64,000 nt of DNA from Minisyncoccota bacterium (GCA_022841985.1 JALHQL010000004.1:1726-65725), one strand, 5' to 3'. Shown: positions 2,348-63,120, counted from the first letter of the stretch. Notes: generated by a model from the letters alone, not told the origin. Numbers and translations: made by a program.

Positions 2348-2770
2348 ATGGAGTACCATGTGCCGCAATTCATTGAGGTTGAAGATAAGATAATCGGGCC
2401 TTTGACCTTGCGACAATTTATTTACATCGCTGGGGCGGGCGGGCTTTGCATTGTCTTCTTTGCCTATTTGCCAATCGTCTTTGCTCTTCTGCTCTCGGTA
2501 CCAGTCATAGCGTTCGCAGCAGCGCTCGCATTCTATAAAGTAAACGGCAAAGCGTTCATCGACATTCTTGAAGCTGGCTTTAATTACTACACAGGAGCAA
2601 AACTCTTCCTCTGGAAACAGCGCGAAATCAAGGCAGAGGAGCAGCATGCAGCAGCGACTGCAGCTGCCGCAGCTGCTACTGCTCTCCGAGAAGTTCGAAA
2701 CACCCCGAAACTGACACGGGGAAAACTCTCTGAACTCGCATGGTCGCTCGATGTTCGTTCCTCAAAATAA
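2348..2770 (+). CDS. PrgI-family membrane protein (T4SS VirB3-like)
   Basis: 140 aa; N-term 'MEYHVPQFIEVEDKIIGPLTLRQFIYI' followed by two hydrophobic helices, Ala-rich tail; typical PrgI family; directly upstream of VirB4-like ATPase. Confidence 0.6.
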   Translation: MEYHVPQFIEVEDKIIGPLTLRQFIYIAGAGGLCIVFFAYLPIVFALLLSVPVIAFAAALAFYKVNGKAFIDILEAGFNYYTGAKLFLWKQREIKAEEQHAAATAAAAAATALREVRNTPKLTRGKLSELAWSLDVRSSK

Positions 2771-2771
2771 T

Positions 2772-3407
2772 ATGGCGACAAAAATAGCAAGCGCGACCCA
2801 ACAATTTGTTCCCGTTAAAGAAATACGAAATGGCACCATCATTCTCAAAGATGGTAGTTATCGCGGTGTCGTCATCTGTTCGTCCATCAACTTCGGACTT
2901 AAATCAGCCGATGAGCAGCATGCCATCACTCTCGGTTTTCAAAATTTCCTCAATACGCTCGATTTTTCAATTCAGATTGTCGTAAACTCGCGGAAGATGG
3001 ACTTACGCCCCTACCTCGCGCTTCTTGCCGAGAAAGCTTCTGAACAGAAAACGGAGCTTATGCGAATTCAGCTTCGCGAATATATAGAATTTGTTCGATC
3101 TTTTGCCGACCAGGCGAACATTATGACGAAGTCATTTTATATCATCGTCCCCTATGCGCCGCATGTTTCTGTGTCTAGCGCTACCGGTTTCCTGCGGCGT
3201 GAGAGCGACTCTGCGAAGAGTGCTGCAGCTCAGACTTCCTTTGAAGAGAGTCGTGCGCAACTTGAACAGCGCCTCTCTCTTGTTATCGGGGGCCTTGCAG
3301 GTACCGGGGTGCGTGCAGTCCCACTTGGCACCGAAGAAATCATAGAGCTTCTCTATCGGTCATTTAATCCCGGAGAGCTCGAAAACCCTATTCGTTTGGA
3401 TAATTGA
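2772..3407 (+). CDS. hypothetical protein in VirB4 cluster
   Basis: 212 aa from ATG immediately after prgI stop; soluble, no recognisable motif; position matches separately-encoded N-terminal module seen next to some VirB4 homologues (inference). Confidence 0.45.
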   Translation: MATKIASATQQFVPVKEIRNGTIILKDGSYRGVVICSSINFGLKSADEQHAITLGFQNFLNTLDFSIQIVVNSRKMDLRPYLALLAEKASEQKTELMRIQLREYIEFVRSFADQANIMTKSFYIIVPYAPHVSVSSATGFLRRESDSAKSAAAQTSFEESRAQLEQRLSLVIGGLAGTGVRAVPLGTEEIIELLYRSFNPGELENPIRLDN

Positions 3408-3408
3408 T

Positions 3409-5229
3409 ATGTCATTACTTAATTTCCTCAATCGTAAAAAAGAAGAAGCTCCGGCAATAACACCGGTCCTACCGAAAGATATTTACCGACAAGGCTCATT
3501 GGATCTCGTCGATACTATCGCTCCGACGGCACTCAAGATCAGTTCACGCGAGATCGAACTTGGCGAAAAATTCGTCCGTACTTTTTATACCATCTCCTAC
3601 CCACGATTCCTCTCTGACAGCTGGTTCTCGCCCGTCATCAATCTCGACAAAGTGCTTGATGTCTCCATATTCATCCACCCGATAGAGACTGAGGTTGCGC
3701 TGCGCGGCTTCCAGAAGAAAGTTGCTGAGGTCCAGAGCCAAATCAGTGAGCGCGAAGCGAAAGGGTTGGTACGCGACCCTCTGCTCGATACCGCTTACCA
3801 AGATCTCGAGGATTTGCGAGACAGTCTGCAACAAGCGCAGGAAAAACTTTTTAATGTTGGATTGTACCTCGCCCTCTACGGCGACTCTAAAGAGGAAATC
3901 GATAAGACTGAAGGCGATATCCGCGGCATCCTCGACTCGAAACTTGTCTACACTAAGCCGGCGCTCTTCCAGCAAGAACAAGGGATTCGTTCTTGTCTGC
4001 CACTCGGCACCGACGAGCTCCTCGTTAATTCAAAACTCGATTCCTCGCCTCTTTCTTCGCTCTTTCCTTTCGTCTCCTTCGATCTCACAAGTGATCGCGG
4101 CATCCTCTACGGCATCAACCGCCATAATTCCTCTCTCATCCTTTTCGATCGCTTTTCGCTCGAAAACTACAATTCCGTCATTTTCGCAAAATCAGGCTCG
4201 GGCAAAAGCTATGCGACGAAGCTTGAGCTCCTACGTTCGCTCATGTTCGGCACTGACATCATCGTCATCGACCCTGAGCGGGAGTATGAACAACTTGCAG
4301 AAGCGACCGGTGGACGTTCTTTTAACATTTCGCTTTCCTCCGAGCACCATATCAATCCTTTTGATCTCCCGCCTGTCAAAGAGGATGAGGATCCGAAGAA
4401 TATTCTGCGCTCTAACATCATTGCGCTTGTCGGACTGTTTCGCATCATGCTCTCTGGTCTTACCCCCTCAGAGGATGCCATCATCGATCGCGCAATCAGC
4501 GAAACCTATGCGCTCAAAGATATCACCGGCGATACTGACTTTACGGGCGCCGAACCTCCATCTCTCTCCGACTTTGAGCAAGTGCTCTCCGGCATGGAGG
4601 GAAGCGAATCTTTGGTTGAACGCCTCTCAAAATACACGCGAGGTACCTGGGCAGGATTCCTCAACCAGCCGACCAACATCGACCTCAAGCAACAATTCGT
4701 CGTCTTCTCCGTGCGCGATATGGAGGATGAGCTTAAACCTGTGGCGATGTATATCATCACACACTACATCTGGAATGCGGTGCGCCACGAACTAAAGAAA
4801 CGCCTGCTCGTCATCGACGAAGCATGGTGGATGATGAAGAGTGAAGACACCGCCTCCTTCCTCTACTCAGTGGCAAAACGAGGACGCAAATATTATCTGG
4901 GTGTTTGCACGATTACCCAAGATGTTGAGGACTTCCTCAAGAGTCCGTATGGGCGGCCGATTCTTACCAACTCTTCTTTGCAATTGCTGCTAAAACAGTC
5001 GCCGACGACAATCGACGTGCTAAAAGAAACTTTCAGTCTCACTGAGGAAGAAAAATATCTCTTGCTCGAAGCCGGGGTGGGGGAGGGACTCTTCTTCGCA
5101 GGATTAAAACATGTTGCTATCAAGATAGTCGCGAGCTACACGGAAGACCAGATAATTACCTCCGATCCATCGCAAGTCCTCGCGATTAAACAGGAGAAGG
5201 ATCGCCATGTCCTTGCGCAGAAACAATAA
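3409..5229 (+). CDS. VirB4/TrsE/TraC-family type IV secretion ATPase
   Basis: 606 aa; Walker A 'FAKSGSGKSYATK', Walker B-like 'RLLVIDEAWWMM', C-terminal 'GVCTITQDVEDF' (Q-motif of VirB4/DUF87 ATPases). Confidence 0.8.
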   Translation: MSLLNFLNRKKEEAPAITPVLPKDIYRQGSLDLVDTIAPTALKISSREIELGEKFVRTFYTISYPRFLSDSWFSPVINLDKVLDVSIFIHPIETEVALRGFQKKVAEVQSQISEREAKGLVRDPLLDTAYQDLEDLRDSLQQAQEKLFNVGLYLALYGDSKEEIDKTEGDIRGILDSKLVYTKPALFQQEQGIRSCLPLGTDELLVNSKLDSSPLSSLFPFVSFDLTSDRGILYGINRHNSSLILFDRFSLENYNSVIFAKSGSGKSYATKLELLRSLMFGTDIIVIDPEREYEQLAEATGGRSFNISLSSEHHINPFDLPPVKEDEDPKNILRSNIIALVGLFRIMLSGLTPSEDAIIDRAISETYALKDITGDTDFTGAEPPSLSDFEQVLSGMEGSESLVERLSKYTRGTWAGFLNQPTNIDLKQQFVVFSVRDMEDELKPVAMYIITHYIWNAVRHELKKRLLVIDEAWWMMKSEDTASFLYSVAKRGRKYYLGVCTITQDVEDFLKSPYGRPILTNSSLQLLLKQSPTTIDVLKETFSLTEEEKYLLLEAGVGEGLFFAGLKHVAIKIVASYTEDQIITSDPSQVLAIKQEKDRHVLAQKQ

Positions 5230-5851
5230 GCCGACGGTGCCTGAAGCGATGACGTGGGGAAAAGCTGCGCCCGTCCTTGCAATCTCTGCCATTTTTGACG
5301 CGCTAGGATTTTTATTTGGGATGTTTTGGCTCTTCGGTCCGGCATTAGCCGCTGCATACTGTACTGCCGTGGCAGGTGAGACCTTAGCAACATGGACATT
5401 TGGATTATTAGGGACAAAAACTGCCGCAGCAGTGTGCACGGCTGGCGCGGCGACGGCGGGATCATTCCTCTCGGAGCCTCTCATTATCTTCGGTACTGTG
5501 ATGGCTATGGCCACCGAACTCTTTGGTTGGCTCACAATTGGACTCATACTTATGATGACCAATGCGCGCATATTTAAAGAACATCAGAGTCATTCGCTTT
5601 TATTTGTTTCTAGTCTTGGCCTGTCCGAAATTCCATTGATTGGCTCTCTTCCCGCGCTTACTGGAGCCACTATTAAGATGTATCATGCTCAAATTAAGAA
5701 AGACAAAGAGATTTTGCTGAAACATAAGAAAGAGAGTGCCAATGCACAACTGCAAGAGCGCCGACAGCAAGCTGCAAAACTTATGCAGGCACACTATGCA
5801 AAAGCAGCAAACGCCGAGAGAATCCCCGACGAACTGCGTGAAGCGGCATAA
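5207..5851 (+). CDS. polytopic membrane protein with C-terminal coiled-coil (possible VirB6-like component)
   Basis: 214 aa; 4-5 predicted TM helices then charged helical tail; overlaps virB4-like stop by 23 nt (coupled). Confidence 0.45.
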   Translation: MSLRRNNKPTVPEAMTWGKAAPVLAISAIFDALGFLFGMFWLFGPALAAAYCTAVAGETLATWTFGLLGTKTAAAVCTAGAATAGSFLSEPLIIFGTVMAMATELFGWLTIGLILMMTNARIFKEHQSHSLLFVSSLGLSEIPLIGSLPALTGATIKMYHAQIKKDKEILLKHKKESANAQLQERRQQAAKLMQAHYAKAANAERIPDELREAA

Positions 5852-6002
5852 GCGAAGCTTGCTCCCTGCGCGCGTTCGCAAGAGAAAAATCAGAATTTCT
5901 CTCTTGTCTCACTTGCTTGGTAGTAAGCGAAGCTTGCTCCCTGCGTTCGCTTCGAACAAATGAATGAAGACATTCATTTGTTACTCGACTCACTTGGTAG
6001 TG
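5849..6002. repeat. imperfect ~75-bp tandem duplication with internal hairpins
   Basis: 'taagcgaagcttgctccctgcg' at 5849-5870 and 5924-5945; 'ctcacttg(ctt)ggtag' at 5908-5922 and 5990-6002; palindrome caaatgaatgaagacattcatttg at 5958-5981. Confidence 0.6.
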
Positions 6003-6032
6003 AACACCTCGCGTAGGATATATACTATAGGC

Positions 6033-7028
6033 ATGCATTTTAATTTCGTCATCGCTTGTATCGGAATCATCTTTGCCGTTCCTTTTGCAGCGACGGCCCA
6101 ATCCATAGGAAGTGCTGCGCAAGGTACTCCTTTTACTATCTCGGTGCGTCCGCAGTATCCGTCGCCGGGCAGCAAAGCGACCATTTCGCTCGTTTCGACT
6201 TCTCTGGACCTCGCGAATGCGATTATGACCGTTTTGGTTGCAGGGAAGGAAATCTATAGAGGCGCCGTGCAGCCAGTCGCCATTCCGCTCGGCAAAACAG
6301 GAAGTGTCGCAAATACGAAAGTGACAATTTCTTCCGGCGGTGTGAACTACAGCCAAACAGTCTTTATACAACCGCAAGATGTTGTACTCATCGCTGAACC
6401 TGTTTCATCGACGCCTCCACTTTATCCTGGTAAGTCTCTGGTGCCGATCGGGGGAGATGTACGAGTCGTCGCAGCAGCGAACTTAAGAGATGCTCAAGGA
6501 AAGACAATTGATCCTGCTACTCTTTCTTATGTATGGATGGTCAACGATGCTCAAATTGCAGATGCCTCTGGTATTGGCAAACAAGCGATTATGGTTGCTT
6601 CACCGTTACAATACCGTGCGCGTTCAGTGGCAGTCGCCGTCACGAGCCAAGACGGAATCCTTGTAGGCGGAGCGTCGCTCTCTTTCACGGCTCAAGAACC
6701 GACCGTGCGCCTTTACCGAAACGACCCCTTGCTCGGTATTCGCTACAACCGAGCTCTTTCCGGAGAATATGCCATCAGTGATGTGGAGGCTGCCATTTAT
6801 GCAGCGCCCTTCTCCTTGCCGACAACAAGCGGAGTACCTTTGGTCCAATGGTTCTTAAACGGCGCTCCGGCACAGACAGGCAATTCAATAACCCTGCGAC
6901 CAACAGGGAAAGGCCAAGGAAATGCGACACTCTCACTTGTCGCTTCTGCGAATAGTAGTGCGTCAGCCACTGCAAACCTCTCACTCCTTTTTGGGAAAGA
7001 ACCGAGTTTTAACCTATTCGGCTTATGA
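6033..7028 (+). CDS. secreted hypothetical protein (Ig-like repeats)
   Basis: start moved to 'MHFNFVIACIGIIFAVPFAATAQS' signal peptide; beta-rich, Thr/Ser/Val-rich repeats. Confidence 0.5.
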   Translation: MHFNFVIACIGIIFAVPFAATAQSIGSAAQGTPFTISVRPQYPSPGSKATISLVSTSLDLANAIMTVLVAGKEIYRGAVQPVAIPLGKTGSVANTKVTISSGGVNYSQTVFIQPQDVVLIAEPVSSTPPLYPGKSLVPIGGDVRVVAAANLRDAQGKTIDPATLSYVWMVNDAQIADASGIGKQAIMVASPLQYRARSVAVAVTSQDGILVGGASLSFTAQEPTVRLYRNDPLLGIRYNRALSGEYAISDVEAAIYAAPFSLPTTSGVPLVQWFLNGAPAQTGNSITLRPTGKGQGNATLSLVASANSSASATANLSLLFGKEPSFNLFGL

Positions 7029-7519
7029 AAAAAATGAATTTTGTGGCAATCGTCCTGTTTCTTGGATTTACTCCTCTCTATGTGTTTGCTCAGGGTTTCG
7101 TCCCGCTCGCAGGAATTCCAGGACTTACCACAGGCGAGGTGGCGGGTTCAGGCAATCTTGCACTCTTTTTCAATAATCTCTATAAGTATCTCATTGGTCT
7201 CGCTGCCACGCTCGCAATCATTCAGATTATCTGGGGAGGAATTGCTATAGCAACCAACAAGGACGATGTCAGTAAAATACTTGACGAGAAAGGAAAAATT
7301 TACAATGCGATCTTCGGTCTTATACTAGTCCTCTCACCCGTACTTGTTTTTTCTATCATAAATCCGAACATCTTGAATCTCTCTCTTAACCTCCCGCCAC
7401 TTGGCACGACACCCCCAGCTCGTTCTTCGGCGCTATCTACAACAACTCCTACACAGGCGCTGCCTCAAACAGGAGAAACATCTGTCCTGTCTGGTACGGC
7501 CTTACCTATACAATTCTAA
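7025..7519 (+). CDS. pilin-like protein (VirB2/TrbC-like candidate)
   Basis: 164 aa; signal peptide 'MKKMNFVAIVLFLGFTPLYVFAQG', then two hydrophobic helices separated by short loop (IGLAATLAIIQIIWGGIAIA / IFGLILVLSPVLVFSII), Pro/Thr-rich tail. Confidence 0.45.
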   Translation: MKKMNFVAIVLFLGFTPLYVFAQGFVPLAGIPGLTTGEVAGSGNLALFFNNLYKYLIGLAATLAIIQIIWGGIAIATNKDDVSKILDEKGKIYNAIFGLILVLSPVLVFSIINPNILNLSLNLPPLGTTPPARSSALSTTTPTQALPQTGETSVLSGTALPIQF

Positions 7520-7522
7520 ATT

Positions 7523-8725
7523 ATGCGCCGCACACTTACCATCGTCTCTACCATAATAGTCCTCGTCGGGATCGGGACGGGAGTATATTTTTACTTCTTT
7601 GCGAATACCACAGGTGTCACAATCGCACCTCCTGAGGGAGGTGGTTTGCCGATAGCTGGGCAGGGGACAATGCCGATCACAGGAAATACTCCTGATACGG
7701 AAGCTCCAGTTGGTGCTCCCGTGTCAGTCTCTGCACGACTTGTGAAAATAAGTCCCGGACCAGTCGCACTTGGTGCGGTTGTCATTGACCATAAGGCGGT
7801 GAACGCAAGTTCTTCACCAGAAGTTGCTGTCTCCTACATCGAGCGACAAAGTGGCAATGTATTTTCCTATAAAGTTGGGGCCGCGACACTCACCCGTACT
7901 TCAAACAAGACCGTCCCTGGCATTCAGACGGCTTCATGGCTCCCTGACGGGTCACTCGCCTTCGTGCGCTACTTGTCGGGGACTGACTTTTCTACCATTA
8001 ATACGTATGCTCTTCCTTCAAACGGCTCGAATGGTTTTTTTCTACCCCAAAATCTTGCTGATGTAGCGGCTAGTCCGACAAGAGTCCTCACTCTCTCATC
8101 GGGCGTAAACGGATCGACTGTCTCACTCAGACGTATAGACGGCACCTCTCCCTCAACCGTATTTACAACACACCTCTCTGCGCTTCGATCTTCCTTTTCA
8201 GGAAAAAGTCAGTATCTCGTATTCACAAAACCTTCGATGACTCTTGCTGGCAATGCTTTTCTCATTGAGACTTCCGGCCGTTTCTCCCGTATTGCGGGAC
8301 CGCACAATGGTCTTGTAGCACTTGCGAGTCCGCTCGGGAAATGGATCCTTGTGAGTTTTGTACAAGAGGGTTCGATGCGTATGAACCTTATCAATACTGC
8401 GACAGCCGAGAGTATCCCTCTCCCTGTTGCGACCATCGCAGACAAATGCGTATGGACGGCCGATGATTCAGTTATCTATTGCGGCATTCCAGTAAATCCC
8501 CCCTCTGATTTTAATTATCCGGACGATTGGTACCAAGGAGCTGTGCCTTTCAATGATCGTCTATGGAAGATACAAGTTGATGGCCGTTATGCGCAACTGG
8601 TACTCGATTTTTCTGCAGAAACAAAAGATTCTCTTGATGCCGAGGCCCTTGCCATTAATCCCGCAAACACTGTCCTTGTATTCGTCAACAAGAACGATGG
8701 TTCTCTGTGGTCGTACTCACTGTGA
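7523..8725 (+). CDS. N-terminally membrane-anchored beta-propeller-like protein
   Basis: 400 aa; single N-terminal TM, repeated 'W/F-x-x-DGS' like blades (WLPDGSLAF, WTADDSVIY). Confidence 0.45.
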   Translation: MRRTLTIVSTIIVLVGIGTGVYFYFFANTTGVTIAPPEGGGLPIAGQGTMPITGNTPDTEAPVGAPVSVSARLVKISPGPVALGAVVIDHKAVNASSSPEVAVSYIERQSGNVFSYKVGAATLTRTSNKTVPGIQTASWLPDGSLAFVRYLSGTDFSTINTYALPSNGSNGFFLPQNLADVAASPTRVLTLSSGVNGSTVSLRRIDGTSPSTVFTTHLSALRSSFSGKSQYLVFTKPSMTLAGNAFLIETSGRFSRIAGPHNGLVALASPLGKWILVSFVQEGSMRMNLINTATAESIPLPVATIADKCVWTADDSVIYCGIPVNPPSDFNYPDDWYQGAVPFNDRLWKIQVDGRYAQLVLDFSAETKDSLDAEALAINPANTVLVFVNKNDGSLWSYSL

Positions 8726-9448
8726 TGCTTTGCTAGTCATTGCTCGGCGTACATACCATTCTTGCAATGCTCCTGCAATGTTTGTAGTGATGAAATAAAG
8801 CGCTATCGCGCTAGTTGTCGTGTAGGAAATAATTGCAATAATAAAAGGGAAGACGTATTTCAGCTGCAAACTCATGACTTTCTGAAAATCAGCCTGCATA
8901 CCGCCGAGCATCGAAGGCTTCATCGTCCCTGAAAGGGCCATATGTGCTTGAACAAACTGAGTGATGCCGGCCAATATCGCAAGAACAATACTTTTACCCA
9001 TCATTGAGATGAGCCCGAGAAATTCAAGAGAAATAGTATCTGGAACAGGAGTAAGCCCATAGAGCCGTGCGGTATTAATCACTGAAAATGGTTCATAAAA
9101 AAACACCCAATAGAGCGCGAACAGGACGGGAATCTGTATGAAAACCATGAGAATGCTTGCAAACGGGTTTACCTTTTCTGCACGATAGAGAGCGAGAGTT
9201 TCAAGCGCCTCTTTCTCTTTATTGCCCTTATATTTCTCTTTTAGATCCTTAATCTTTGGTTCCAGATCCCTCATCGCGATCTGTGTACGTGCTGCCGAAA
9301 GAGAGAAGGGAAGAAGAATAAGCCGAATAGCGACCGTGAGCAGAATAACGGCGATACCCACATCCGAACCGGGGATTAGAGCGGTCAGAGCGACTAGGGC
9401 ATTATAAATCGGATCATAGAAAGCACTGTAAAAGAAAGTTACAATCAC
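8717..9448 (-). CDS. yidC: membrane protein insertase YidC
   Basis: 243 aa; 'VILLTVAIRLILLPFS...', 'FIQIPVLFALYWVF' YidC/Oxa1 core; rpmH-rnpA-yidC synteny. Confidence 0.8.
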   Translation of the reverse strand: MIVTFFYSAFYDPIYNALVALTALIPGSDVGIAVILLTVAIRLILLPFSLSAARTQIAMRDLEPKIKDLKEKYKGNKEKEALETLALYRAEKVNPFASILMVFIQIPVLFALYWVFFYEPFSVINTARLYGLTPVPDTISLEFLGLISMMGKSIVLAILAGITQFVQAHMALSGTMKPSMLGGMQADFQKVMSLQLKYVFPFIIAIISYTTTSAIALYFITTNIAGALQEWYVRRAMTSKASQ

Positions 9449-9462
9449 AAGTCTATTCTACT

Positions 9463-9774
9463 CTATCGGCGAATTTTGGAAAGAAGATTGGCGAGTTCGC
9501 TTTTGACATCTTGATACGACATGCTGCTGACAGAGGATTTTGGGAAAACAATGAGTGACGCAGGGAGGGGGAGAGTTCGGAGCGCCGCAAGTACCCGACG
9601 CTTAATCAGGTGCCTGGTAACCGAGAGACGAGCAGTCTTTTTCGACACAATGACCGCATATCCTTTCGATTCTTTCGGAAAAATGATGCTTAGATTTGAG
9701 GACGAAAATCTCCGGCCTGTTGAAAGCGCTGTAGGGAAAACCGCACGCGAGAGCCGTTCTCGGCGAGGGAACAC
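9463..9774 (-). CDS. rnpA: ribonuclease P protein component
   Basis: 103 aa basic protein immediately downstream of rpmH; 'RLSRAVFPT...GRRFSSSNLSIIF...AVIVSKK..ARLSVTRHLIKRRV' matches RnpA layout. Confidence 0.65.
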   Translation of the reverse strand: MFPRRERLSRAVFPTALSTGRRFSSSNLSIIFPKESKGYAVIVSKKTARLSVTRHLIKRRVLAALRTLPLPASLIVFPKSSVSSMSYQDVKSELANLLSKIRR

Positions 9775-9944: not shown

Positions 9945-10015
9945 CAATACTAACAGTTTCTCCCCGAAACGCCAGAGTGCCTTGTCTAAAGAATCATCGT
10001 ATACTCCAAAGCATT

Positions 10016-11368
10016 ATGAACAAAGGGGATCCGAAGGAGTTGTGGGAATACGTTCTTACCCAGATCGAGTTATCTATATCCCCAGCAAACTTCAATACCT
10101 GGTTCCGTAACAGTTTTATCGTGAAGATTAGTGAGGATGGGGTGGTGCATATCGGCGTACCGAGTCAGTTCTTTAAGGATTGGTATCTTAAGAAATTTCA
10201 CACTTTGTTGTTGAAAATCATTCGAGATGTGTCGTATGAATTCCGTAATATCGAATATGTCATTGTAAAAGATGAAAATCGCAGACTCTCCAAAGAAGTT
10301 AAAAATGTGCGGGGAGCACTTGAGCTGCCTCTTGATGATTTTTATATCAATAAAAGCGACAATCTGAATCCGAGATATACATTTGATACATTTGTTATCG
10401 GATCCTTCAATAATCTCGCGTACGCGGCGGCACAAGCGGTGCTCGCACGTCCTGGAATAACCTACAACCCTCTTTTTATCTATGGTGATACTGGTCGCGG
10501 GAAAACACACCTTATCCAAGCTATTGGTAATCAATATAAGAAACAGTATCCCGGACAGAAAGTTTTCTATCTCACGTCTGAAAAATTTGTTGTTGATTAC
10601 ACCGATTCAGTGCAGGCAGGCACCGCCAACAGATTCAAAGATAAATATCGCCACTATGACCTTCTTATCATGGATGATATTCAATTTCTTTCAAAAAAAG
10701 AAAGGAGTGAGGAAGAATTGTTTCATCTCTTCAACGCTCTTCATGACATGAATAAGCAAATTATTTTCTCTTCCGATCGCTCTCCAATAGCCATTCCTGA
10801 TATTACTGAGCGTTTAAAGGGGCGATTAGCGAGTGGTATGACGATTGATATTGGGGAACCAGATCCGGAGTCACGGATGGCCATCGTACGGAAAAAAGCA
10901 GCTTCACATGGTGTATTACTATCGGATGAGGTTATTGAATATGTAGCGGTATCCATGAATGGTTCTATACGTGAATTAGAAGGTATGGTAAACAGTATTA
11001 TCTGTCACGCTCAAGTGAAAGGATTTGCGCCTGATATTATGGAAGTGCGACAATCCCTCCGCTCATTCACTCGTCCTCAAAAAAACATATCTATTAAAAA
11101 TATTGTTGATAAAATTGCGGAATTTTATAATATTGATGAAGAAAGTATCTATGAAAAAACAAGGAGGAGGGAAGTAGTACGGCCTCGACAGATCATTATG
11201 TATATTCTTCGAGAGGATTTTCATATATCCTATCCAACAATTGGCACAAAACTTGGTGGTCGTGATCATACAACTGTTATCCACTCCTGTGAGAAGATAA
11301 AGCGTGAAATGGTTGTGGATAGTGAACTTGAGAAAGAGATTCAAAATATTCGGACTCTTCTTGTATGA
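10016..11368 (+). CDS. dnaA: chromosomal replication initiator DnaA
   Basis: start at 'MNKGDPKELWEYVL'; AAA+ Walker A 'GDTGRGKTHL', Walker B 'LLIMDDIQFL', C-terminal DnaA-box-binding helix 'TTVIHSCEKI'. Confidence 0.9.
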   Translation: MNKGDPKELWEYVLTQIELSISPANFNTWFRNSFIVKISEDGVVHIGVPSQFFKDWYLKKFHTLLLKIIRDVSYEFRNIEYVIVKDENRRLSKEVKNVRGALELPLDDFYINKSDNLNPRYTFDTFVIGSFNNLAYAAAQAVLARPGITYNPLFIYGDTGRGKTHLIQAIGNQYKKQYPGQKVFYLTSEKFVVDYTDSVQAGTANRFKDKYRHYDLLIMDDIQFLSKKERSEEELFHLFNALHDMNKQIIFSSDRSPIAIPDITERLKGRLASGMTIDIGEPDPESRMAIVRKKAASHGVLLSDEVIEYVAVSMNGSIRELEGMVNSIICHAQVKGFAPDIMEVRQSLRSFTRPQKNISIKNIVDKIAEFYNIDEESIYEKTRRREVVRPRQIIMYILREDFHISYPTIGTKLGGRDHTTVIHSCEKIKREMVVDSELEKEIQNIRTLLV

Positions 11369-11480
11369 TTTTTATTTATACTCTATCCACATATTGTTTT
11401 AAAAATAAGGAATGTATATATCCAACTACTACCTCATATTTCAATGTTATCCACCTATCCACACCCTTAATAAGAATTGT
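11369..11480. promoter_or_regulatory. candidate oriC: AT-rich dnaA-dnaN spacer with three DnaA boxes
   Basis: ctatccaca (11383-11391), ttatccacc (11447-11455), ctatccaca (11455-11463); flanked by AT-rich stretches; classic dnaA-dnaN location. Confidence 0.6.
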
Positions 11481-12581
11481 ATGAATATTTCAATAGAAAA
11501 AAAGAAATTCTCAGAAGCTGTGCATATAGTGGCAAGATTCGCTCAACGAAAAATCACTACACTCCCCGCACTCTCTTCAATACTTATTATTGCAGGAGAT
11601 GATGGTATAAAAATGCGCGCAACAAATCTTGAAACAGGTATTGATTTTAAACTTAAAGGAGAATGTACGGAAAAAGGAGTTGTCGCAATTTCAGCATTAT
11701 TACTTCAACAAATAGCAAGTTCACTTACCCAAGAAGGGAAAATAATCCTAGAACACATAGGAGATATTGTTTCAATCACCAGCGGCACAAGTAAAAGTTC
11801 AATAAAAACGACACCTTATGATGATTTTCCCTCAATCCCATTTCCAGAAAGTTCAAAAAATAGAATAGTACTCCCTGGTAGTATTCTTCGTTCACTTTTT
11901 ACCACTATTGCCCCTTGCGCATCTTCTTCCACTGTTCGTCCTGAATTATCAAGTATATACCTCTCTATTGAAGGAGGAATATTAACTGCTGTGGCAACAG
12001 ATTCTTTTCGACTTGCTGAAAAGAAAGTACCGCTTACAAATAAAGGAATTCAAGGAAAGTTTCTTATTCCCGCAAAAAACGCTCTTGATATAGCCCAAGC
12101 ATTACCTAATGAGGATATTATTATGTCGTTTGATGAACACCAATGCGCGTTTATCTCAAATGATGGGATGCTTGTATCAAGATTAACAAATGCGGTATAT
12201 CCTGATTATCGGCAAATAATACCAAAAGAATCTGTTGTTGAAGCGATTGTTTTACGAAAAGATTTTGAAAATGCATTAAAACGAACAATTATCTTTTCAG
12301 ATTTATTTCAAAAAATACGCATCAATTTTGATCCAAAAAAGAATCTTTTTTCTTTTTTTACACGGAATGCTGATATTGGAGAATCAATAGAAACACTCCC
12401 AGCACGCATATCAGGAAGCGCTCTTGAACTCTCTTTTAATCATAGGTATCTTTCCGCCGTATTGTCGCTTACAGGATCGGAAAGCATTTCAATTCTTGCC
12501 GTAGGTATCGGACGCCCACTTATTATAAAAGGTGTTGGGGATACCTCTCTGCTTTATTTAGTATCTCCAATGAATCAATAA
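11481..12581 (+). CDS. dnaN: DNA polymerase III beta sliding clamp
   Basis: start at 'MNISIEKKKF'; three-domain ~366 aa clamp, 'IAPCASSSTVRPELSSIYLSIEGG' central region typical. Confidence 0.85.
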   Translation: MNISIEKKKFSEAVHIVARFAQRKITTLPALSSILIIAGDDGIKMRATNLETGIDFKLKGECTEKGVVAISALLLQQIASSLTQEGKIILEHIGDIVSITSGTSKSSIKTTPYDDFPSIPFPESSKNRIVLPGSILRSLFTTIAPCASSSTVRPELSSIYLSIEGGILTAVATDSFRLAEKKVPLTNKGIQGKFLIPAKNALDIAQALPNEDIIMSFDEHQCAFISNDGMLVSRLTNAVYPDYRQIIPKESVVEAIVLRKDFENALKRTIIFSDLFQKIRINFDPKKNLFSFFTRNADIGESIETLPARISGSALELSFNHRYLSAVLSLTGSESISILAVGIGRPLIIKGVGDTSLLYLVSPMNQ

Positions 12582-14991: not shown

Positions 14992-15468
14992 TTATTTGCG
15001 GGGGAGCCCTGCAGCGAGTGCCGTAATGCCTATAGCAATCGCATCCATCTCATCATCAAGACGCTTCTTTGCAGGGAGAGAAAGAAGGCGTGGAATCATA
15101 GCCGCAACTGTCGATTTGTCTGAACCACCGTGGCCGGTGACAGCAAGTTTGACTTGTTGAGGGGAGCATTCTATGACTGGTAGAGAAACCATACCAGCAG
15201 CGGCGAGTATTGCTCCTCGTGCTTCTGCGACACCAATGGCTGTTTTTTTATTTGCACTAAAAAAGAGCGTTTCAATACCAAGTGCGTCGGGTAAGTGTTC
15301 CTTGATGACCTCAGTAATCGCGCGCGATACATGCGCAAGACGTTTCTCAGAAGATCCTTTGTCGGGGAGCACGCAATCGCTCATGACAAGCGTTGGTCGC
15401 GACGGATTTCCTTCGAGGACGGCAATACCGAGACGATCGTAGCCCGGGTCAATCGCCAGTATCCTCAT
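14992..15468 (-). CDS. ruvC: Holliday junction resolvase RuvC
   Basis: start at 'MRILAIDPGYDRLGIAVLEG'; RNase-H-like fold acidic residues (D..E..D..) present. Confidence 0.8.
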   Translation of the reverse strand: MRILAIDPGYDRLGIAVLEGNPSRPTLVMSDCVLPDKGSSEKRLAHVSRAITEVIKEHLPDALGIETLFFSANKKTAIGVAEARGAILAAAGMVSLPVIECSPQQVKLAVTGHGGSDKSTVAAMIPRLLSLPAKKRLDDEMDAIAIGITALAAGLPRK

Positions 15469-16003
15469 ATCCTTGCGCGTTGGTAAAGACTCTCTGGACA
15501 TCGTCATGCTCATCCAATGTTTCAAGTATTACGGAGAGTCTCTCTTCATCAGCTCCAGCGACTTCAATAAGTGGTTCATGCGGTGCGTACTTGTCGCCAT
15601 TTTTCGTAAATGCCCAACTTGCAGCGCCCGGAGCTGCCAGTGCGACCCCTTGAAGCGAGAGTAGATGCTTCACTTCCTGAGTCGTACGGTTTTTGTTGTC
15701 GGTAAGAGCTTCGATGAGGAGGGCGGTACCGCCTGGACCGTACGCTTCATAGACGACCTGCTCAAGATTCCCGGAGTCTTTCGAGATACCCTTTGCCACC
15801 GCACGCTCAATATTTTCCTTTGGCATATTTTCCGCTTTGGCGCGTGCGATAGCGACCGAAAGTCCTGGCGCTGAGAGAACACCCTGTGCTTTTTTTGATT
15901 CAAGAGTGATGAGGCGCGCATACCGTGAGAAGACGCGGCTTCTTGCTGCATCCGTTACCGACTTTTGGCGCTTGATTTGTGACCATTTACTGTGCCCTGA
16001 CAT
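15449..16003 (-). CDS. YebC/PmpR-family DNA-binding regulatory protein
   Basis: 'MSGHSKWSQIKRQKSVTDAARSRVFSRYARLI' hallmark N-terminus; only 184 aa (shorter than typical ~240); overlaps ruvC start by 20 nt. Confidence 0.7.
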   Translation of the reverse strand: MSGHSKWSQIKRQKSVTDAARSRVFSRYARLITLESKKAQGVLSAPGLSVAIARAKAENMPKENIERAVAKGISKDSGNLEQVVYEAYGPGGTALLIEALTDNKNRTTQEVKHLLSLQGVALAAPGAASWAFTKNGDKYAPHEPLIEVAGADEERLSVILETLDEHDDVQRVFTNAQGYEDTGD

Positions 16004-17300: not shown

Positions 17301-18977
17301 TTAACGAGGGAGATCGACGGTCGCGGCGACTTCTGCAAGCGAAGTGATGCCAGTGAGGGCTTTGATAATGCCGTCTTGAGCCATCGTCAGATAGCCTTGT
17401 TTTCCAGCTAACTTCGCAATGTCATTTTCAGACGGATTGTCGCGCAGGAAGCTTGCGAGCTCGTCGTCCATGAATATCGCTTCATAGAGGCCGACACGAC
17501 CCTTGTAGCCAGTTTCGCCAGCATTGGTCGGAGCTGGTTCCCATACCGTCTCTATCTTTTCAGGAATCAATGATTTATCGGTAAGCGGCTCAAATACTTT
17601 AGCGATCATTTTTTTCTCGTCGTCCGTAAGAAGGCGTTCTTTCTTTTTATTTGGATCAAGTTTGCGTATAAGCCGTTGTGCCATTGAGACGGTGACCGAC
17701 GAACCGAAGGATTTCGGATCCGCGCCAAGATCAACAAGTCGCGGGAAAGTTCCAGCAGCGTTGTTTGTGTGAAGCGTCGAGAAGACAAAGTGTCCAGTGA
17801 GCGCCGCTTGAATGGCAATATTTGCCGTTTCACCATCGCGGATTTCGCCAACCATGATAATGTCTGGGTCCTGTCGCACGATCGACTTGAGTCCTTCGGC
17901 AAAGGTATACTTTTCTCCTTCAACCTGTGTCTGCACAATACCTTCGAGATGGTATTCAATAGGATCTTCTATGGTGATTACTTTTATCTCTGGCGAATGT
18001 ATCTCGCGGAGGAATGAGTAAAGTGTGGTCGTTTTGCCGCTTCCGGTAGGACCTGTCGTGAGGAGCATTCCGTTCGGCCGCCGTATCTCCGTCTCTAGTC
18101 GAGCGAGAAGTTTTGGATGGATACCGAGCTCTTTATAGGAAACTTTTGTAGCTTCGGGATCGAGAATACGCATCACGATAGACTCTCCGTAGTTTCCGGG
18201 AATAAAGGAAACGCGCATTTCGATCTGGTTTGCGCCTTTTATGATGCTGAAACGGCCGTCTTGCGCGCGATTAGTGATATTGAGCTTCGCTCCCGAGAGA
18301 AGTTTAATGCGCGAATTAATTTGATGGTATGTTGCCGGATCGAAGTGGTATGTATCAGAGAGGAGACCGTCGATACGCAGGCGAAGGAGCGCTTTCTCTT
18401 CGCTCGGCTCGAAATGGATGTCAGATGCTCGGAGTGCGAACGCTCCGGCAAGAACGAGCTCGAGCAAATGAGAGACACGTTCGAGAGACTTGAGGTTCAT
18501 GGCGGTATCAAATCCTTGTTCAAGGGTTTTACGTGATCCTTCTCCTTGAGTTATTTTTTCGAGTGTTTCGGGAGTAACGACAAACACGCCAGCTTTTGAT
18601 GTGGCAGCAAAGGAGAGGTCGCTATAGCGGGCAAATACCTTATCGAGACTTTTTTTCGAAACGAGAAATTTTTGCAGCAGAAACCCGCGAGTGGTGAGAT
18701 CTTCGATAAGGGTTGGAAGCGTTGGATTGTTTGGATTATGAATAGCAAGTGAAAGTGTTTTTGCTGTTTTTGCAAAAGCTGCCGCGTCAGCGAGATGTGC
18801 TTGTTCTTCTGGGATAATGCGAAGCGCATCATTGTCTACTTCCTTGAGCGAAAGGTCGATGTAGGACATTCCGTATTTGTCAGAAAGTATCTGCGCAACA
18901 TCTTCCTCTTCCCGCTCTCGTACCTGAGCAAGCTCTGCGTCCTCGTGTTCCGTATCAAAATGAGAATCCATGTGCAT
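17301..18977 (-). CDS. GspE/PilB-family type II/IV secretion ATPase
   Basis: Walker A 'LLTTGPTGSGKTTTLYS', 'IITIEDPIEY', 'VGEIRDGETA' Asp/His boxes; start placed at 'MHMDSHFD'; no pilC/pilM partner in window. Confidence 0.8.
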   Translation of the reverse strand: MHMDSHFDTEHEDAELAQVREREEEDVAQILSDKYGMSYIDLSLKEVDNDALRIIPEEQAHLADAAAFAKTAKTLSLAIHNPNNPTLPTLIEDLTTRGFLLQKFLVSKKSLDKVFARYSDLSFAATSKAGVFVVTPETLEKITQGEGSRKTLEQGFDTAMNLKSLERVSHLLELVLAGAFALRASDIHFEPSEEKALLRLRIDGLLSDTYHFDPATYHQINSRIKLLSGAKLNITNRAQDGRFSIIKGANQIEMRVSFIPGNYGESIVMRILDPEATKVSYKELGIHPKLLARLETEIRRPNGMLLTTGPTGSGKTTTLYSFLREIHSPEIKVITIEDPIEYHLEGIVQTQVEGEKYTFAEGLKSIVRQDPDIIMVGEIRDGETANIAIQAALTGHFVFSTLHTNNAAGTFPRLVDLGADPKSFGSSVTVSMAQRLIRKLDPNKKKERLLTDDEKKMIAKVFEPLTDKSLIPEKIETVWEPAPTNAGETGYKGRVGLYEAIFMDDELASFLRDNPSENDIAKLAGKQGYLTMAQDGIIKALTGITSLAEVAATVDLPR

Positions 18978-19117
18978 GAATGATAACAGAGTGATAATAC
19001 CATCCGGAAATGGATACAGGGAGCAGGACTTGACACCATGGCATAAGTGGTAGTATAATATACATAGATAATTGTTGTGAGCCAATAAATTAAAAAACTG
19101 AAAAAGGGGGGTGTGTT

Positions 19118-19462
19118 ATGAAGAGGGAATATCTCTCTGTGATTCTCGTTCTTCTTATCTCAACGACTCTTGGTGGCTGTGTGATCCAGGTCAATCAGCC
19201 GGAGCGTAAGGTGGCGCCGGTGCCCTTACATCAACCGCTCTCGAAAGACGATGTGAAAAAAGGGATTTCGGCAAAGCTGATTACGTTAGACGATGTGGGA
19301 TGCAAATCTCCAGCGAAATGGGAGTGGGAGAAGGGAAAGATGGTATGCGGAACGCCGGATACTCCCTCGTATATCTGGCCCAATAATAGGCCCTACGGGT
19401 ATCCTTATTATTATGGGTATGGATATTACCCGTACGGATACGGTCACGCGTATTATTGGTGA
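19118..19462 (+). CDS. small lipoprotein with Tyr/Gly-rich C-terminus
   Basis: 114 aa; lipobox 'LGGC'; tail 'PYGYPYYYGYGYYPYGYGHAYYW'. Confidence 0.5.
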   Translation: MKREYLSVILVLLISTTLGGCVIQVNQPERKVAPVPLHQPLSKDDVKKGISAKLITLDDVGCKSPAKWEWEKGKMVCGTPDTPSYIWPNNRPYGYPYYYGYGYYPYGYGHAYYW

Positions 19463-19477
19463 AATAGAACAATCTCA

Positions 19478-19513
19478 AAATGCGCTCTTTTCTTTGGAGA
19501 AAAGAGCGCATTT
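19478..19513 (+). terminator. hairpin (15-bp stem) downstream of lipoprotein gene
   Basis: aaatgcgctcttttc-tttgga-gaaaagagcgcattt; no strong U-tract. Confidence 0.4.
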
Positions 19514-19605
19514 CAGTTCTAAGTTCATAGACAGTTCAGTACGGCCGGTAGTATATCTCTCAACAAGTTAGAACATTCCGGTATCTCATAAAAACGGAGG
19601 TTTCT

Positions 19606-19962
19606 ATGAAGATCCCAGTAGTTCTTTTCATCTCAATTCTTTTCCTTGGAGTCGTGGTGCCAATCAAAACTCACTCCGGGGTGGTGCATTGCCCATTTCC
19701 CGAGTCCGAACCCGTGTGGAAGGTGGACAAATACGTTTGTGAACCTTCGGCGTCTTTTCGTCCGCCACCTCCGATTGAGAAAAAAGCGGCTTCGCCGCCT
19801 GTTGTGGCACGACAACCGCAGATCGTTGTGCAAACGATTCCTCATTACTACGTATACCCGTATCCAGTATGGAGAGAACGATATTGGTGGGGGTGGCCTG
19901 CGCTGTGTGGTTACGGTTTTTGGTCATACACTTACTTAGGTTGGGGAAGCTGTTATTGGTAG
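19606..19962 (+). CDS. small secreted protein with Tyr/Trp-rich C-terminus (paralogue of 19118..19462)
   Basis: 118 aa; signal peptide; shared 'W-x-V/W-x-K-x-VC-x-P' core and aromatic tail '...YYVYPYPVWRERYWWGWPALCGYGFWSYTYLGWGSCYW'. Confidence 0.5.
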   Translation: MKIPVVLFISILFLGVVVPIKTHSGVVHCPFPESEPVWKVDKYVCEPSASFRPPPPIEKKAASPPVVARQPQIVVQTIPHYYVYPYPVWRERYWWGWPALCGYGFWSYTYLGWGSCYW

Positions 19963-19990
19963 GTTTCTCACAAAGGCAAAATTGAATACA

Positions 19991-20030
19991 AACGCGCTCA
20001 TCCTTAGAAGGATGAGCGCGTTATCATTTT
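19991..20030 (+). terminator. rho-independent terminator
   Basis: aacgcgctcatcc-ttagaa-ggatgagcgcgtt followed by atcatttt. Confidence 0.6.
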
Positions 20031-20052
20031 CAGCGGTACAATTGCACGTATC

Positions 20053-20490
20053 ATGGAGAAGACGATTCGGACGCTAGAAGAGCTTAAGAAAGAGGCTGCA
20101 GGCTTTGTTGGCACGCTCATGCCGAGTGCGCAGGGCGCGACGCTTGTGACCCTCTCAGGAGAGCTTGGGGCGGGGAAGACTACTTTTACCAAGGCTGCTG
20201 CGAACGCGCTTGGGATCGAAGAGATTGTTACGAGTCCTACGTTTGTGCTCGAGAAAATCTATCAGCTTCCGGAAGGCAAGACATTTAAACGACTCATACA
20301 CATTGACGCATATCGGCTCGAACAAGGGAGTGATCTCGCTCCGCTCGGTTTTGATGAACTTATGCAGGACTCAGGAAATCTTATTTTGCTTGAGTGGCCG
20401 GAGAAAGTAGTCGACGCGCTCCCGAAGCCATCAAAAAAACTTTCTCTCACGGTGCAGTCTGACGGGTCGCGCATCATTTTGTATGGCTAA
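20053..20490 (+). CDS. tsaE: tRNA threonylcarbamoyladenosine biosynthesis protein TsaE
   Basis: 145 aa; P-loop 'LSGELGAGKTTFTK', 'SPTFVL' motif. Confidence 0.75.
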   Translation: MEKTIRTLEELKKEAAGFVGTLMPSAQGATLVTLSGELGAGKTTFTKAAANALGIEEIVTSPTFVLEKIYQLPEGKTFKRLIHIDAYRLEQGSDLAPLGFDELMQDSGNLILLEWPEKVVDALPKPSKKLSLTVQSDGSRIILYG

Positions 20491-24435: not shown

Positions 24436-24508
24436 GCGCCCGTAGCTCAGTTGGTAGAGCAGATCCCTTTTAAGGATAAGGTCCCGCGTTCGATCCGCGG
24501 CGGGCGCA
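24436..24508 (+). tRNA. tRNA-Lys (anticodon TTT)
   Basis: 73 nt cloverleaf folded by hand: acceptor GCGCCCG/CGGGCGC, D-arm GCTC-AGTTGGTA-GAGC, anticodon loop CTTTTAA, T-arm CCGCG-TTCGATC-CGCGG; CCA not encoded. Confidence 0.85.
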
Positions 24509-24509
24509 C

Positions 24510-25334
24510 ATGAACGATTTCAAGAAGCAGTGTATAGCCCTGCGAAAGAAGGGTTACAGCATTAACGAAATCATGAAAGCGACGGGGAAAGCGAAGGGTT
24601 CTATCTATGTACATATAAAAGATATCCCATTGAGCAAGAAGCGCCTGAAGCAGTATAGAGAAGCTTCTGGGAAATGGATCAGGAAATTTGCACTCGCACG
24701 AAAAGGCAGGAGTGCGCGCTCATTCCGGCCATTTGATACATGGTCTGCAGAGACTGTTCTTTTGGTTGCCCACCTGCTTTTTGACGGTGAGATTGCAAAA
24801 GGGAAATGCGTGTATAACAATCGTAGTCGAGTGCTCATCGAGCGTGTCGAAAGGCTCCTGCGCGTAGTATATGACTTTGAGCCAAAACGATACAAAAATG
24901 AAGCGACAGGAGTGTGGAAAACAAATTACTATAATGTAGCTCTCAGTGCGTATTTGAAAGGCAAATCGAAAGAATTGCTGCGACAAATCAAAGGAATGCC
25001 GCTCGATTTAAAACTGGAGTTTGTGCGTGCATTTTTTGACGACGAAGGATGTATGGATTTCCGACCGGGGCGCAAAAAAGTTCGCGGATATCAGAAAGAT
25101 ATGCGGATCCTAAAGTTAGTCAAAGCACTTTTAATTGATTTTGGCATCACTGCGCGTATAGCACTTCCTAACGAAGTGGTAATCGTGGGAAAAGAAAATT
25201 TAATTCGATTTGAACAAAAAATAAATTTCTCGCCGGGTGTTTCCATAAACGGGGATCGCACCAACAGCATCTGGAAGAAACATATAGAGAAAAGAGAACT
25301 GCTCAAACAAGCTATAAAATCTTTTAAAAGCTAG
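24510..25334 (+). CDS. LAGLIDADG-family homing endonuclease (two motifs) with N-terminal HTH-like region
   Basis: 274 aa; motif 1 'LVAHLLFDGEIAKG', motif 2 'FVRAFFDDEGCMDF'; ATG starts 2 nt after tRNA-Lys 3' end; AT-rich relative to neighbours. Confidence 0.6.
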   Translation: MNDFKKQCIALRKKGYSINEIMKATGKAKGSIYVHIKDIPLSKKRLKQYREASGKWIRKFALARKGRSARSFRPFDTWSAETVLLVAHLLFDGEIAKGKCVYNNRSRVLIERVERLLRVVYDFEPKRYKNEATGVWKTNYYNVALSAYLKGKSKELLRQIKGMPLDLKLEFVRAFFDDEGCMDFRPGRKKVRGYQKDMRILKLVKALLIDFGITARIALPNEVVIVGKENLIRFEQKINFSPGVSINGDRTNSIWKKHIEKRELLKQAIKSFKS

Positions 25335-38698: not shown

Positions 38699-38806
38699 AT
38701 TATATAGAGATGATATTGCAGGGCGTCTGTTTTTTTGGTACTGTCCGGTCGGATAGATGTTCGACGCAAAAATCAACACAACCTTAACTTTTGCAAGGAG
38801 GAAGAA

Positions 38807-62872: not shown

Positions 62873-63120
62873 TATAGCACTCACGACATGTTGGTAGGGT
62901 AAAACAGTCCGTCTCGCCGTCCCCACTGCAAGCGGACGGGGTATTGGCGGACGGACGCCATGGTGTTTTGTTGGATAAGGATGCAGGCTCCGCTTCACAT
63001 ATTTGATTTCAGCTATTCATCCTCGCCACAAAGCAGGCGAGGCACCCTGGTCAAGACCAGCAAAGACTAGAGCAAGGAACTTGCGCGCCGTTTTCACGGA
63101 CGTATACTGTCCGATACGGT

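Follow-up and report, generated by a model that had tools for sequence, protein, structure and literature searches.

Type IV secretion systems (T4SSs) are probably central to the life of ultra-small host-dependent bacteria on other cells, a group to which about a quarter of bacterial diversity is estimated to belong. In the saccharibacterium Southlakia epibionticum, the one species tested genetically, the homologous genes for PrgI, a TrsD-like protein, VirB4 and pilins are essential for epibiotic growth as judged by transposon-insertion sequencing (Tn-seq; Wang et al., 2023, Cell; PMC10633639), and comEC is dispensable there while the T4SS is essential (PMC10633639; PMC12857230). Quinonero-Coronel et al. 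(2025, Microb Genom; PMC12102498) found VirB4 in 2,417 of 3,035 Patescibacteria genomes as a monophyletic clade nested in MPF-FATA, with genes for TrsD, PrgI and VirB2-like proteins adjoining virB4, with relaxases in only 103 of the 3,035 genomes and, in Paceibacteria, with the T4SS near dnaA, dnaN, rnpA and rpmH. A 2025 review regards these systems as unique among monoderm (Gram-positive) species, being needed for growth on the host and possibly producing pili (PMC12857230), and a 2026 preprint describes tubular structures at the parasite–host interface which its authors suggest could be T4SS pili (bioRxiv 10.64898/2026.06.21.733656). Here we describe a virB4-centred cluster at 2348–8725 of a 64,000-nucleotide (nt) stretch of DNA from a Minisyncoccota bacterium (GCA_022841985.1 JALHQL010000004.1:1726-65725; this whole stretch is called the window and all positions refer to it). 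It very probably represents, in its Paceibacteria (Kaiserbacteria-like) form, the chromosomal and non-conjugative T4SS that the Patescibacteria clade inherits vertically, that nearly all of these ultra-small bacteria have close to the replication origin and that descends from the MPF-FATA conjugation machinery of single-membrane bacteria. The system was published between 2023 and 2025, so this is one more example of it and not a discovery, and the overall picture is unchanged. An earlier sequence-only reading of the same DNA had proposed a VirB4-centred, non-conjugative T4SS-like apparatus of a kind recurring in Patescibacteria; profile hidden Markov models and a synteny check in 80 related loci bear this out, so that its interpretation of the cluster was largely right but already known. 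Its description of such clusters as ‘essentially uncharacterised’ does not hold, as their distribution, composition, missing relaxase and proximity to dnaA (PMC12102498) and their essentiality by Tn-seq (PMC10633639) have been published.

The interval contains seven co-directional open reading frames (ORFs) on the + strand (Table 1), not the eight genes first counted, and the ORFs that had been listed are all present on that strand where they had been placed. The genes overlap or are separated by 1–3 nt, in keeping with the tight packing that had been described, the sole exception being a 181-nt spacer before ORF5 (start at 6033). An alternative ORF5 start at 5964, given by the ORF finder, falls within a hairpin; 331 residues is also the length of the database protein that matches (P0241). 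In composition and setting the locus corresponds to the Patescibacteria-clade T4SS: a chromosomal virB4 has genes for TrsD, PrgI/VirB3 and a VirB2-like pilin beside it and dnaA, dnaN, rnpA and rpmH nearby. PrgI, TrsD and VirB4 form an inner module, joined in this lineage by a small polytopic membrane protein. The outer module consists of one VirB2-type pilin, a beta-propeller tethered to the membrane and a secreted protein with three immunoglobulin-like (Ig) domains. For comparison, relatives of the VirB4 protein were sought in one genome per species; at least 569 stretches encode one and the best 80 (74–96% identity), all from metagenome-assembled genomes labelled Kaiserbacteria, Paceibacterota, Parcubacteria or Minisyncoccota, were compared.

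The PrgI call of the sequence-only reading stands, the ORF1 product matching Pfam PF12666 with 44.7 bits against a cut-off of 27 (E = 2e-11); it has an N-terminal hydrophobic hairpin (hydrophobic segments at residues 21–51) and its orthologue lies directly upstream of TrsD in 77 of the 80 loci. The VirB4 ATPase was likewise correctly recognized from its Walker motifs: ORF3 scores 375.1 bits against the NCBIfam model conju_CD1110 (cut-off 325) and 6.3e-27 against Pfam P-loop_TraG, and carries Walker A (AKSGSGKS) at residue 260 and Walker B (LLVIDEAWW) at residue 466. Its closest solved relative is PDB 4ag5 from the monoderm Thermoanaerobacter (3.6e-46), TrwK reaching only 1.6e-5. The best curated models also derive from monoderm systems, and this, with the 74–96% identity to VirB4 proteins of Paceibacteria, lends indirect support to a place within the Patescibacteria clade. 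By contrast, the ORF2 product, previously listed as a 212-residue unknown, can be named from its profile matches as TrsD-like: it corresponds to the N-terminal domain of VirB4, encoded here as a separate protein. Among NCBIfam models it matches VirB4_plasma (Mbov_0397 family) at profile positions 98–233 (E = 5.5e-9), CD1110 VirB4 at positions 1–163 (E = 2.8e-6) and TrsD (E = 2.7e-3); both VirB4 N-terminal regions are matched in 38/38 of its orthologues and TrsD in 35/38 (best 1.5e-9). ORF3 covers the rest of the same two VirB4 profiles (Mbov_0397 281–893; CD1110 183–733 of 752). Because the ORF2 and ORF3 matches are collinear and complementary on two full-length profiles, VirB4 is split here into TrsD and a truncated ATPase, and the N-terminal (VirB3-binding, membrane-proximal) domain missing from the ORF3 polypeptide is carried by ORF2. 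The split is kept in 79 of the 80 loci. No solved relative of TrsD was found in single-sequence or profile searches of PDB sequences. Residues 14–79 of PrgI and 157–209 of TrsD also show weak collinear matches to the 477-residue NCBIfam family SCO6880, which may be a natural PrgI–TrsD fusion in Actinobacteria, and this common match is a weak hint that the two proteins act together.

The closest described relatives place these proteins in context. With Southlakia the cluster shares the order PrgI–TrsD-like–VirB4 (SEML1_0010, 0009 and 0008), PF18895 pilins, a position adjacent to dnaA, the lack of a relaxase and an exported Ig-like protein that closes the operon there (SEML1_0005, a PEGA/Ig-like protein). 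It differs in having seven genes in 6.4 kb rather than 14 (SEML1_0006–0019) in about 19 kb, one pilin rather than an array of six, a PrgI of 140 rather than 300 residues, no lysozyme-like VirB1 and no large VirB6-like proteins, and in its conserved, lineage-specific tethered beta-propeller and three-Ig protein. The MPF-FATA systems of the Staphylococcus plasmids pGO1/pSK41 (TrsC–TrsD–TrsE) have a VirB3-like protein, a separate TrsD and VirB4 in the same order and serve a single-membrane envelope, but the plasmid encodes, besides a relaxase and a coupling protein, a peptidoglycan hydrolase, and lacks a VirB2 pilin, the reverse of what is found here. The VirB/TrwK-type T4SSs of R388 and Agrobacterium resemble it in their VirB3–VirB4 motor at the inner membrane and in a VirB2 pilin that has two hydrophobic helices; here, however, there is no VirB5–VirB11, VirD4 or outer-membrane complex, VirB4 is split and the match to TrwK is distant, as given above. 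The archaeal Ced system (CedA, CedA1, CedA2, CedB) also combines a VirB4-type ATPase, a VirB2-like pilin and a small membrane protein and is chromosomal and not self-transmissible, and the likeness of the present minimal set, lacking relaxase and coupling protein, to Ced raises the possibility that host or environmental DNA is pulled in for nucleotides or genes. Patescibacteria genomes are reported in the literature to lack nucleotide synthesis, import of DNA or other macromolecules has been proposed (PMC12102498), and VirB4 shows a weak similarity, at the level of the P-loop, to CedB and CedD. We nevertheless regard Ced-like DNA import as unlikely. The score against CedB (NF041017) is 34.6 bits where the cut-off is 700 and covers the P-loop region only, so that the cluster is no member of Ced; Ced has no PrgI or TrsD and its extracellular accessory proteins are not the same; the conserved module contains no DNA-binding or nuclease component; and in Southlakia it is comEC-dependent DNA uptake that can be dispensed with and not the T4SS, as noted above.

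In essentially every sufficiently long locus among the 80 the order is PrgI–TrsD–VirB4–(membrane ORF)–Ig protein–pilin–propeller–yidC–rnpA–dnaA–dnaN–PBP1. When the sample is divided into thirds (near, mid and far relatives), the median identities are 91/83/75% for VirB4, 82/63/52% for TrsD, 70/52/45% for PrgI, 87/76/54% for DnaA, 79/55/36% for DnaN, 60/36/28% for the Ig protein, 63/44/30% for the pilin and 64/41/27% for the propeller. VirB4, the motor, thus diverges less than DnaA, the replication initiator; the exported parts change fast. A metagenome scan seeded with the propeller gave 80 loci, with VirB4 upstream in all 33 of those having at least 4.5 kb of upstream DNA and yidC downstream in 62 of 63; these loci come from fairly close relatives and so are a test of consistency, not of independence. 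On the other side of the cluster, the genes upstream of PrgI (DUF3467, M50 protease, L28, SodA and a weak metallo-beta-lactamase (MBL) fragment) are conserved only among the nearest relatives and, on this comparison, are not part of the system.

These data bear on whether the cluster might belong to an ordinary conjugative element (an integrative and conjugative element or a plasmid remnant) whose relaxase and VirD4 lie beyond the window. The VirB4, PrgI and TrsD families do stem from Gram-positive conjugative elements, and the inspected DNA amounts to 64 kb. Such an origin is nonetheless highly improbable given that the cluster sits at one and the same core position beside yidC–rnpA–dnaA in 80 species, that VirB4 is more strongly conserved than DnaA, that the G+C content of the cluster (0.48–0.50) equals that of its flanks and that relaxases are so scarce in the published survey. 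Moreover, as the sequence-only reading had noted of relaxase, VirD4 and VirB11, none of these genes and no integrase is found among the window ORFs of at least 250 residues (32 smaller candidates of 83–236 residues were not all scanned), and there is no VirD4/TcpA coupling protein among all window ORFs of at least 450 residues. No second copies of the cluster genes were detected in the window by profile search of all six-frame ORFs, the pilin being single-copy.

The position of the cluster in the chromosome is fixed. GC skew has its minimum and changes sign at about 8.5–9 kb, being positive to the right, and five DnaA-box-like sites lie at 11277–11463 in the 3′ end of dnaA, the dnaA–dnaN spacer and the 5′ end of dnaN; together these place the end of the T4SS cluster 1–2.6 kb from the replication origin. 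The cluster is read toward oriC (about 9.8–11.5 kb), head-on to the replication fork, and this orientation is kept in all related loci that hold both virB4 and dnaA. The dnaA–dnaN region (10000–12500) has a G+C content of 0.36–0.40 compared with about 0.48 elsewhere in the window. Between the propeller gene and yidC, which converge, there is no space for a terminator, as their 3′ ends share 9 nt (8717–8725).

Three of the proteins are predicted to be exported, and for two of them, ORF5 and ORF7, Pfam and NCBIfam contain no matching family. ORF5 had been described as a 332-residue signal-peptide protein, which is essentially right apart from its length of 331 residues. The AlphaFold2 model (82 homologues; predicted local distance difference test score, pLDDT, 77) places three tandem Ig-like beta-sandwich domains after the signal peptide, with Foldseek matches in the PDB to multi-Ig proteins (CD22, Hoc, SGBP-B) at E of about 1e-6. 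A C-terminal FG...FGL motif is conserved and the protein is syntenic in 74 of the 80 loci. ORF7, earlier called a 400-residue N-anchored beta-propeller-like protein, does have a transmembrane helix (residues 2–26), followed by a disordered P/G/T-rich linker of about 45 residues (26–70) and a predicted seven-bladed beta-propeller (AlphaFold2, 84 homologues; pLDDT 78, predicted template modelling score 0.74). These fold assignments, which rest on models, add a new detail to the published picture. The top Foldseek match of ORF7 is the PL22 oligogalacturonate lyase, a generic similarity with a TM-score of about 0.5; a lyase function was rejected since not one of its three His positions, candidates for metal binding in the propeller centre, is invariant (conservation 0.93, 0.50 and 0.43 in the 84-sequence alignment). 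ORF5 and ORF7 were also considered as VirB8/PrgL and rejected, the predicted folds being Ig sandwiches and a propeller instead of an NTF2-like alpha+beta fold following an N-terminal transmembrane anchor.

The 164-residue ORF6 product had been put forward as a pilin candidate and this is supported at the level of the family: all 23 orthologues match PF18895 (T4SS_pilin; E ≤ 0.01, best 3e-11) and 12 of 23 match TrbC. Hydrophobic segments at residues 4–22, 52–70 and 94–112 correspond to a signal peptide and two helices, as had been described, and the order signal peptide–helix–polar loop–helix, with an invariant INP motif, is retained across the aligned orthologues; a comparison with PDB sequences gave no significant match. 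The C-terminal tail (7385–7519 in the window; loci L001–L079 of the sample) is hypervariable, ranging from 16 to 124 residues, and is a further new detail. In 16/23 orthologues it has an even number of cysteines (2–8), which suggests a disulfide-bonded surface domain; the window pilin and that of one related locus (L025) do not have the cysteine-bearing domain, the window tail being a cysteine-free S/T/P-rich 50-mer.

Fast-evolving extracellular parts would fit a host interface, and hence a machine that exports effectors or toxins into the host, remodelling or killing it, in the manner of the coupling-protein-less Ptl or Brucella VirB systems. Protein-secreting T4SSs that work with no coupling protein are known (PMC12857230) and protein export is one of the options suggested by Wang et al. 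(PMC10633639). This explanation is rather unlikely: the conserved module has no linked gene for a candidate effector, a chaperone or an immunity protein, and no channel protein could be detected. Uptake of host macromolecules or nutrients is a tentative guess that we favour over effector export, and a role in adhesion only, which we rank after both, seems quite improbable.

The fourth protein of the inner module, ORF4, was correctly described as polytopic, having some 3–5 hydrophobic segments and a charged helical tail by hydropathy, and a multi-transmembrane ORF that evolves fast but keeps its position directly follows VirB4 in about 60 of 71 loci. ORF4 is absent from one locus (L064) and there is no space for it in three others (L051, L074 and L078), and since it is missing from some related loci it falls outside the universal gene set. 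It sits where a VirB6 might, with no homology that could be detected: none of 60 positional orthologues has a TrbL/VirB6 Pfam match at E ≤ 1, and a profile search of PDB sequences gave no VirB6 chain, only compositional membrane-protein noise. An assignment as VirB6, TrbL or PrgH was rejected on the grounds of this lack of homology, of its 3–5 hydrophobic segments (where at least five transmembrane segments would be expected) and of its absence in some loci.

Comparison of the related loci also revealed candidate promoters. A −10-like hexamer, TATACT and frequently TGnTATACT, lies 5–8 nt before the PrgI start in 24/25 near, 20/22 mid and 19/30 far loci, and a hexamer of this type precedes the Ig-protein start in 23/25, 14/22 and 3/25, respectively. 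It is essentially lacking before TrsD, VirB4, pilin, propeller and dnaA in the related loci (for ORF2, ORF3 and ORF6, 0–2 instances per 19–26 near or mid loci and 0–3 per 11–30 far loci). As the spacing matches that from a −10 element to a transcription start, both mRNAs would begin at the start codon and be leaderless. There thus appear to be two candidate leaderless units, PrgI–TrsD–VirB4–ORF4 and Ig protein–pilin–propeller, and two conserved leaderless-type promoters which would divide the membrane/ATPase unit from the extracellular unit constitute another new detail. With two transcription units, pilin and surface parts could be produced in larger amounts than the motor. Within the window the same arrangement (TATACT, TAGAAT or TACAAT, often after TG, 6–8 nt before the start) is found at 10 of 63 putative genes and at 2 of 597 internal start codons, which indicates a genome-wide habit and not a speciality of the T4SS and suggests that many mRNAs of this genome are leaderless; no description of leaderless mRNAs in Patescibacteria was found in the literature searched. 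Other genes with this geometry include those at 15449–16003 (− strand), 42257–43522, 49789–51678 and 53039–54103 (all + strand).

The putative second promoter follows a structured insert of about 150 nt between ORF4 and ORF5. It contains a 21-nt perfect direct repeat, AAGCGAAGCTTGCTCCCTGCG, at 5850–5870 and 5925–5945 (two occurrences, where chance would give 0.00) and several hairpins (z of −3.9 for RNA folding). In most relatives the spacer here measures about 29 nt; part of the insert is shared by one relative (L001).

How such a minimal set might work can be outlined from better-known systems. VirB3 anchors VirB4 to the membrane via the VirB4 N-terminal domain, VirB4 powers the extraction of VirB2 pilin from the membrane and the growth of the pilus, and in the conjugative pili whose structures are solved the termini of the pilin point to the outside and the loop between its helices lines the lumen. 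By analogy, PrgI and TrsD would dock a VirB4 hexamer on the membrane, and VirB4 would extract the Sec-inserted pilin and polymerize it into a VirB2-type tube that crosses the cell wall. Roles as wall-spanning or extracellular scaffold or in host contact might fall to the Ig-domain protein and the tethered propeller, the hypervariable pilin tail would decorate the exterior of the filament, and the tube would serve contact-dependent exchange with a host cell and not conjugation. The contrast between a near-frozen ATPase and exported parts that evolve fast suggests where in the cluster host specificity probably resides. More speculatively, and in our view improbably, the Paceibacteria machine could be the smallest known VirB2-pilus system, with six universal genes (PrgI, TrsD, VirB4, three-Ig protein, pilin and propeller) forming a conduit that dispenses with VirB6, VirB8, VirB1, VirB5, VirB11 and a coupling protein. 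The Ig protein and propeller would then replace pilus base and tip functions, the C-terminal FG...FGL peptide of the former could dock into the latter, and the hypervariable, often disulfide-rich pilin tail would coat the pilus surface as the determinant of host specificity.

Several points weigh against reading the cluster as a working T4SS of the Patescibacteria clade. In Paceibacteria systems the formation of a pilus, the direction of transport and the substrate are inferred. Homologues of VirB6, VirB8 and VirB1 could not be detected, and the only channel candidate, ORF4, is missing in some relatives; a translocation channel is therefore presumptive, and the apparatus might do no more than assemble a pilus. 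The window pilin's own scores fall just short of the Pfam cut-offs (25.3 bits against 26.6 for PF18895; 22.8 against 27.9 for TrbC/VirB2, PF04956). The promoter and leaderless calls rest solely on sequence geometry: a general scan of the region for sigma-70 and terminator consensus sequences was not enriched over shuffles, and the conserved −10 hexamers were recovered only via the comparison of related loci. Finally, VirD4-like genes lie far from virB4 in many Patescibacteria according to the literature, and the window covers 64 kb only, so that a coupling protein or relaxase may lie elsewhere in the genome. The important question of which substrate is moved, and which way, does not become easier to test through this locus alone, although the compactness of Kaiserbacteria-type clusters (seven genes, one pilin and two accessory proteins with assigned folds) could make them a convenient minimal model.

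Table 1. Genes and other features of the T4SS cluster and its downstream neighbours (positions in the window; aa, amino acids)
Feature	Position	Strand	Size, basis or remark
PrgI-family (VirB3-like) membrane protein (ORF1)	2348–2770	+	140 aa; PF12666 match
TrsD-like protein (ORF2)	2751 or 2769–3407	+	218 or 212 aa depending on start; NCBIfam matches
VirB4-family ATPase (ORF3)	3409–5229	+	606 aa; conju_CD1110 match
Small polytopic membrane protein (ORF4)	5207 or 5249–5851	+	214 or 200 aa; hydropathy
Secreted three-Ig protein (ORF5)	6033–7028	+	331 aa; signal peptide, predicted fold
VirB2/TrbC-like pilin (ORF6)	7025–7519	+	164 aa; PF18895 matches of orthologues, layout
Membrane-anchored seven-bladed beta-propeller (ORF7)	7523–8725	+	400 aa; predicted fold
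Candidate promoter, extended −10-like TGcTATACT	2331–2339 (hexamer 2334–2339)	+	8 nt before PrgI ATG
Structured intergenic insert	5852–6010	+	direct repeat, hairpins; lineage-specific
Candidate internal promoter, −10-like hexamer TATACT	6021–6026	+	6 nt before ORF5 ATG
yidC	8717–9448	−	overlaps 3′ end of propeller gene
rnpA	9463–9774	−	downstream neighbour
rpmH			downstream neighbour, among yidC/rnpA/dnaA/dnaN; read from the sequence, no family scan
dnaA	9977–11368		downstream neighbour
dnaN	11412–12581		downstream neighbour

Elsewhere in the window, all ORFs of at least 250 residues with a family match are housekeeping genes, including PBP1, RuvA, RuvB, RuvC, YebC, PolA, Mur ligase and several aminoacyl-tRNA synthetases, together with ThyX, dCTP deaminase, thymidylate kinase, SHMT, RecA, TatD and FtsK. 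The only RNA elements found in the window with Rfam are five tRNAs. The only FtsK-like protein, at 60608–62998, was considered as a coupling protein and rejected, being a genuine FtsK with alpha and gamma domains. The DNA-uptake and cell-surface theme that the sequence-only reading had drawn from a PilB-type ATPase, a lamin-tail protein and an MBL domain could not be upheld, as these ORFs are scattered among housekeeping genes (RuvABC, PolA, Mur ligase and aminoacyl-tRNA synthetases) and are not co-conserved with the cluster. The PilB-type ATPase (17301–19085) lies between RuvB and PolA with no recognized pilus gene beside it (the small ORFs up to polA, 19118–20490, were not scanned), and the lamin-tail ORF scores 32.5 bits, below the Pfam cut-off of 34.3. 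The ORF at 640–1137 encodes 165 residues with an N-terminal hydrophobic segment and weak matches to the MBL/ComEC C-terminal domain (E about 1e-3), is found at 37–52% identity in the closest relatives only, and could represent either a relic or a small MBL protein in its own right.

Three further ORFs deserve mention. That at 38735–40204 encodes 489 residues, with the ThyX (Thy1) match confined to residues 75–256 and the other half or so matching no family. A 274-residue LAGLIDADG homing-endonuclease ORF (24436–25334) begins one base past tRNA-Lys(UUU). The ORF at 45857–49216 encodes an 1119-residue class I aminoacyl-tRNA synthetase, isoleucyl-type by its domains, in which a His_Phos_1 domain is inserted at residues 494–657 between the two halves of the catalytic domain.

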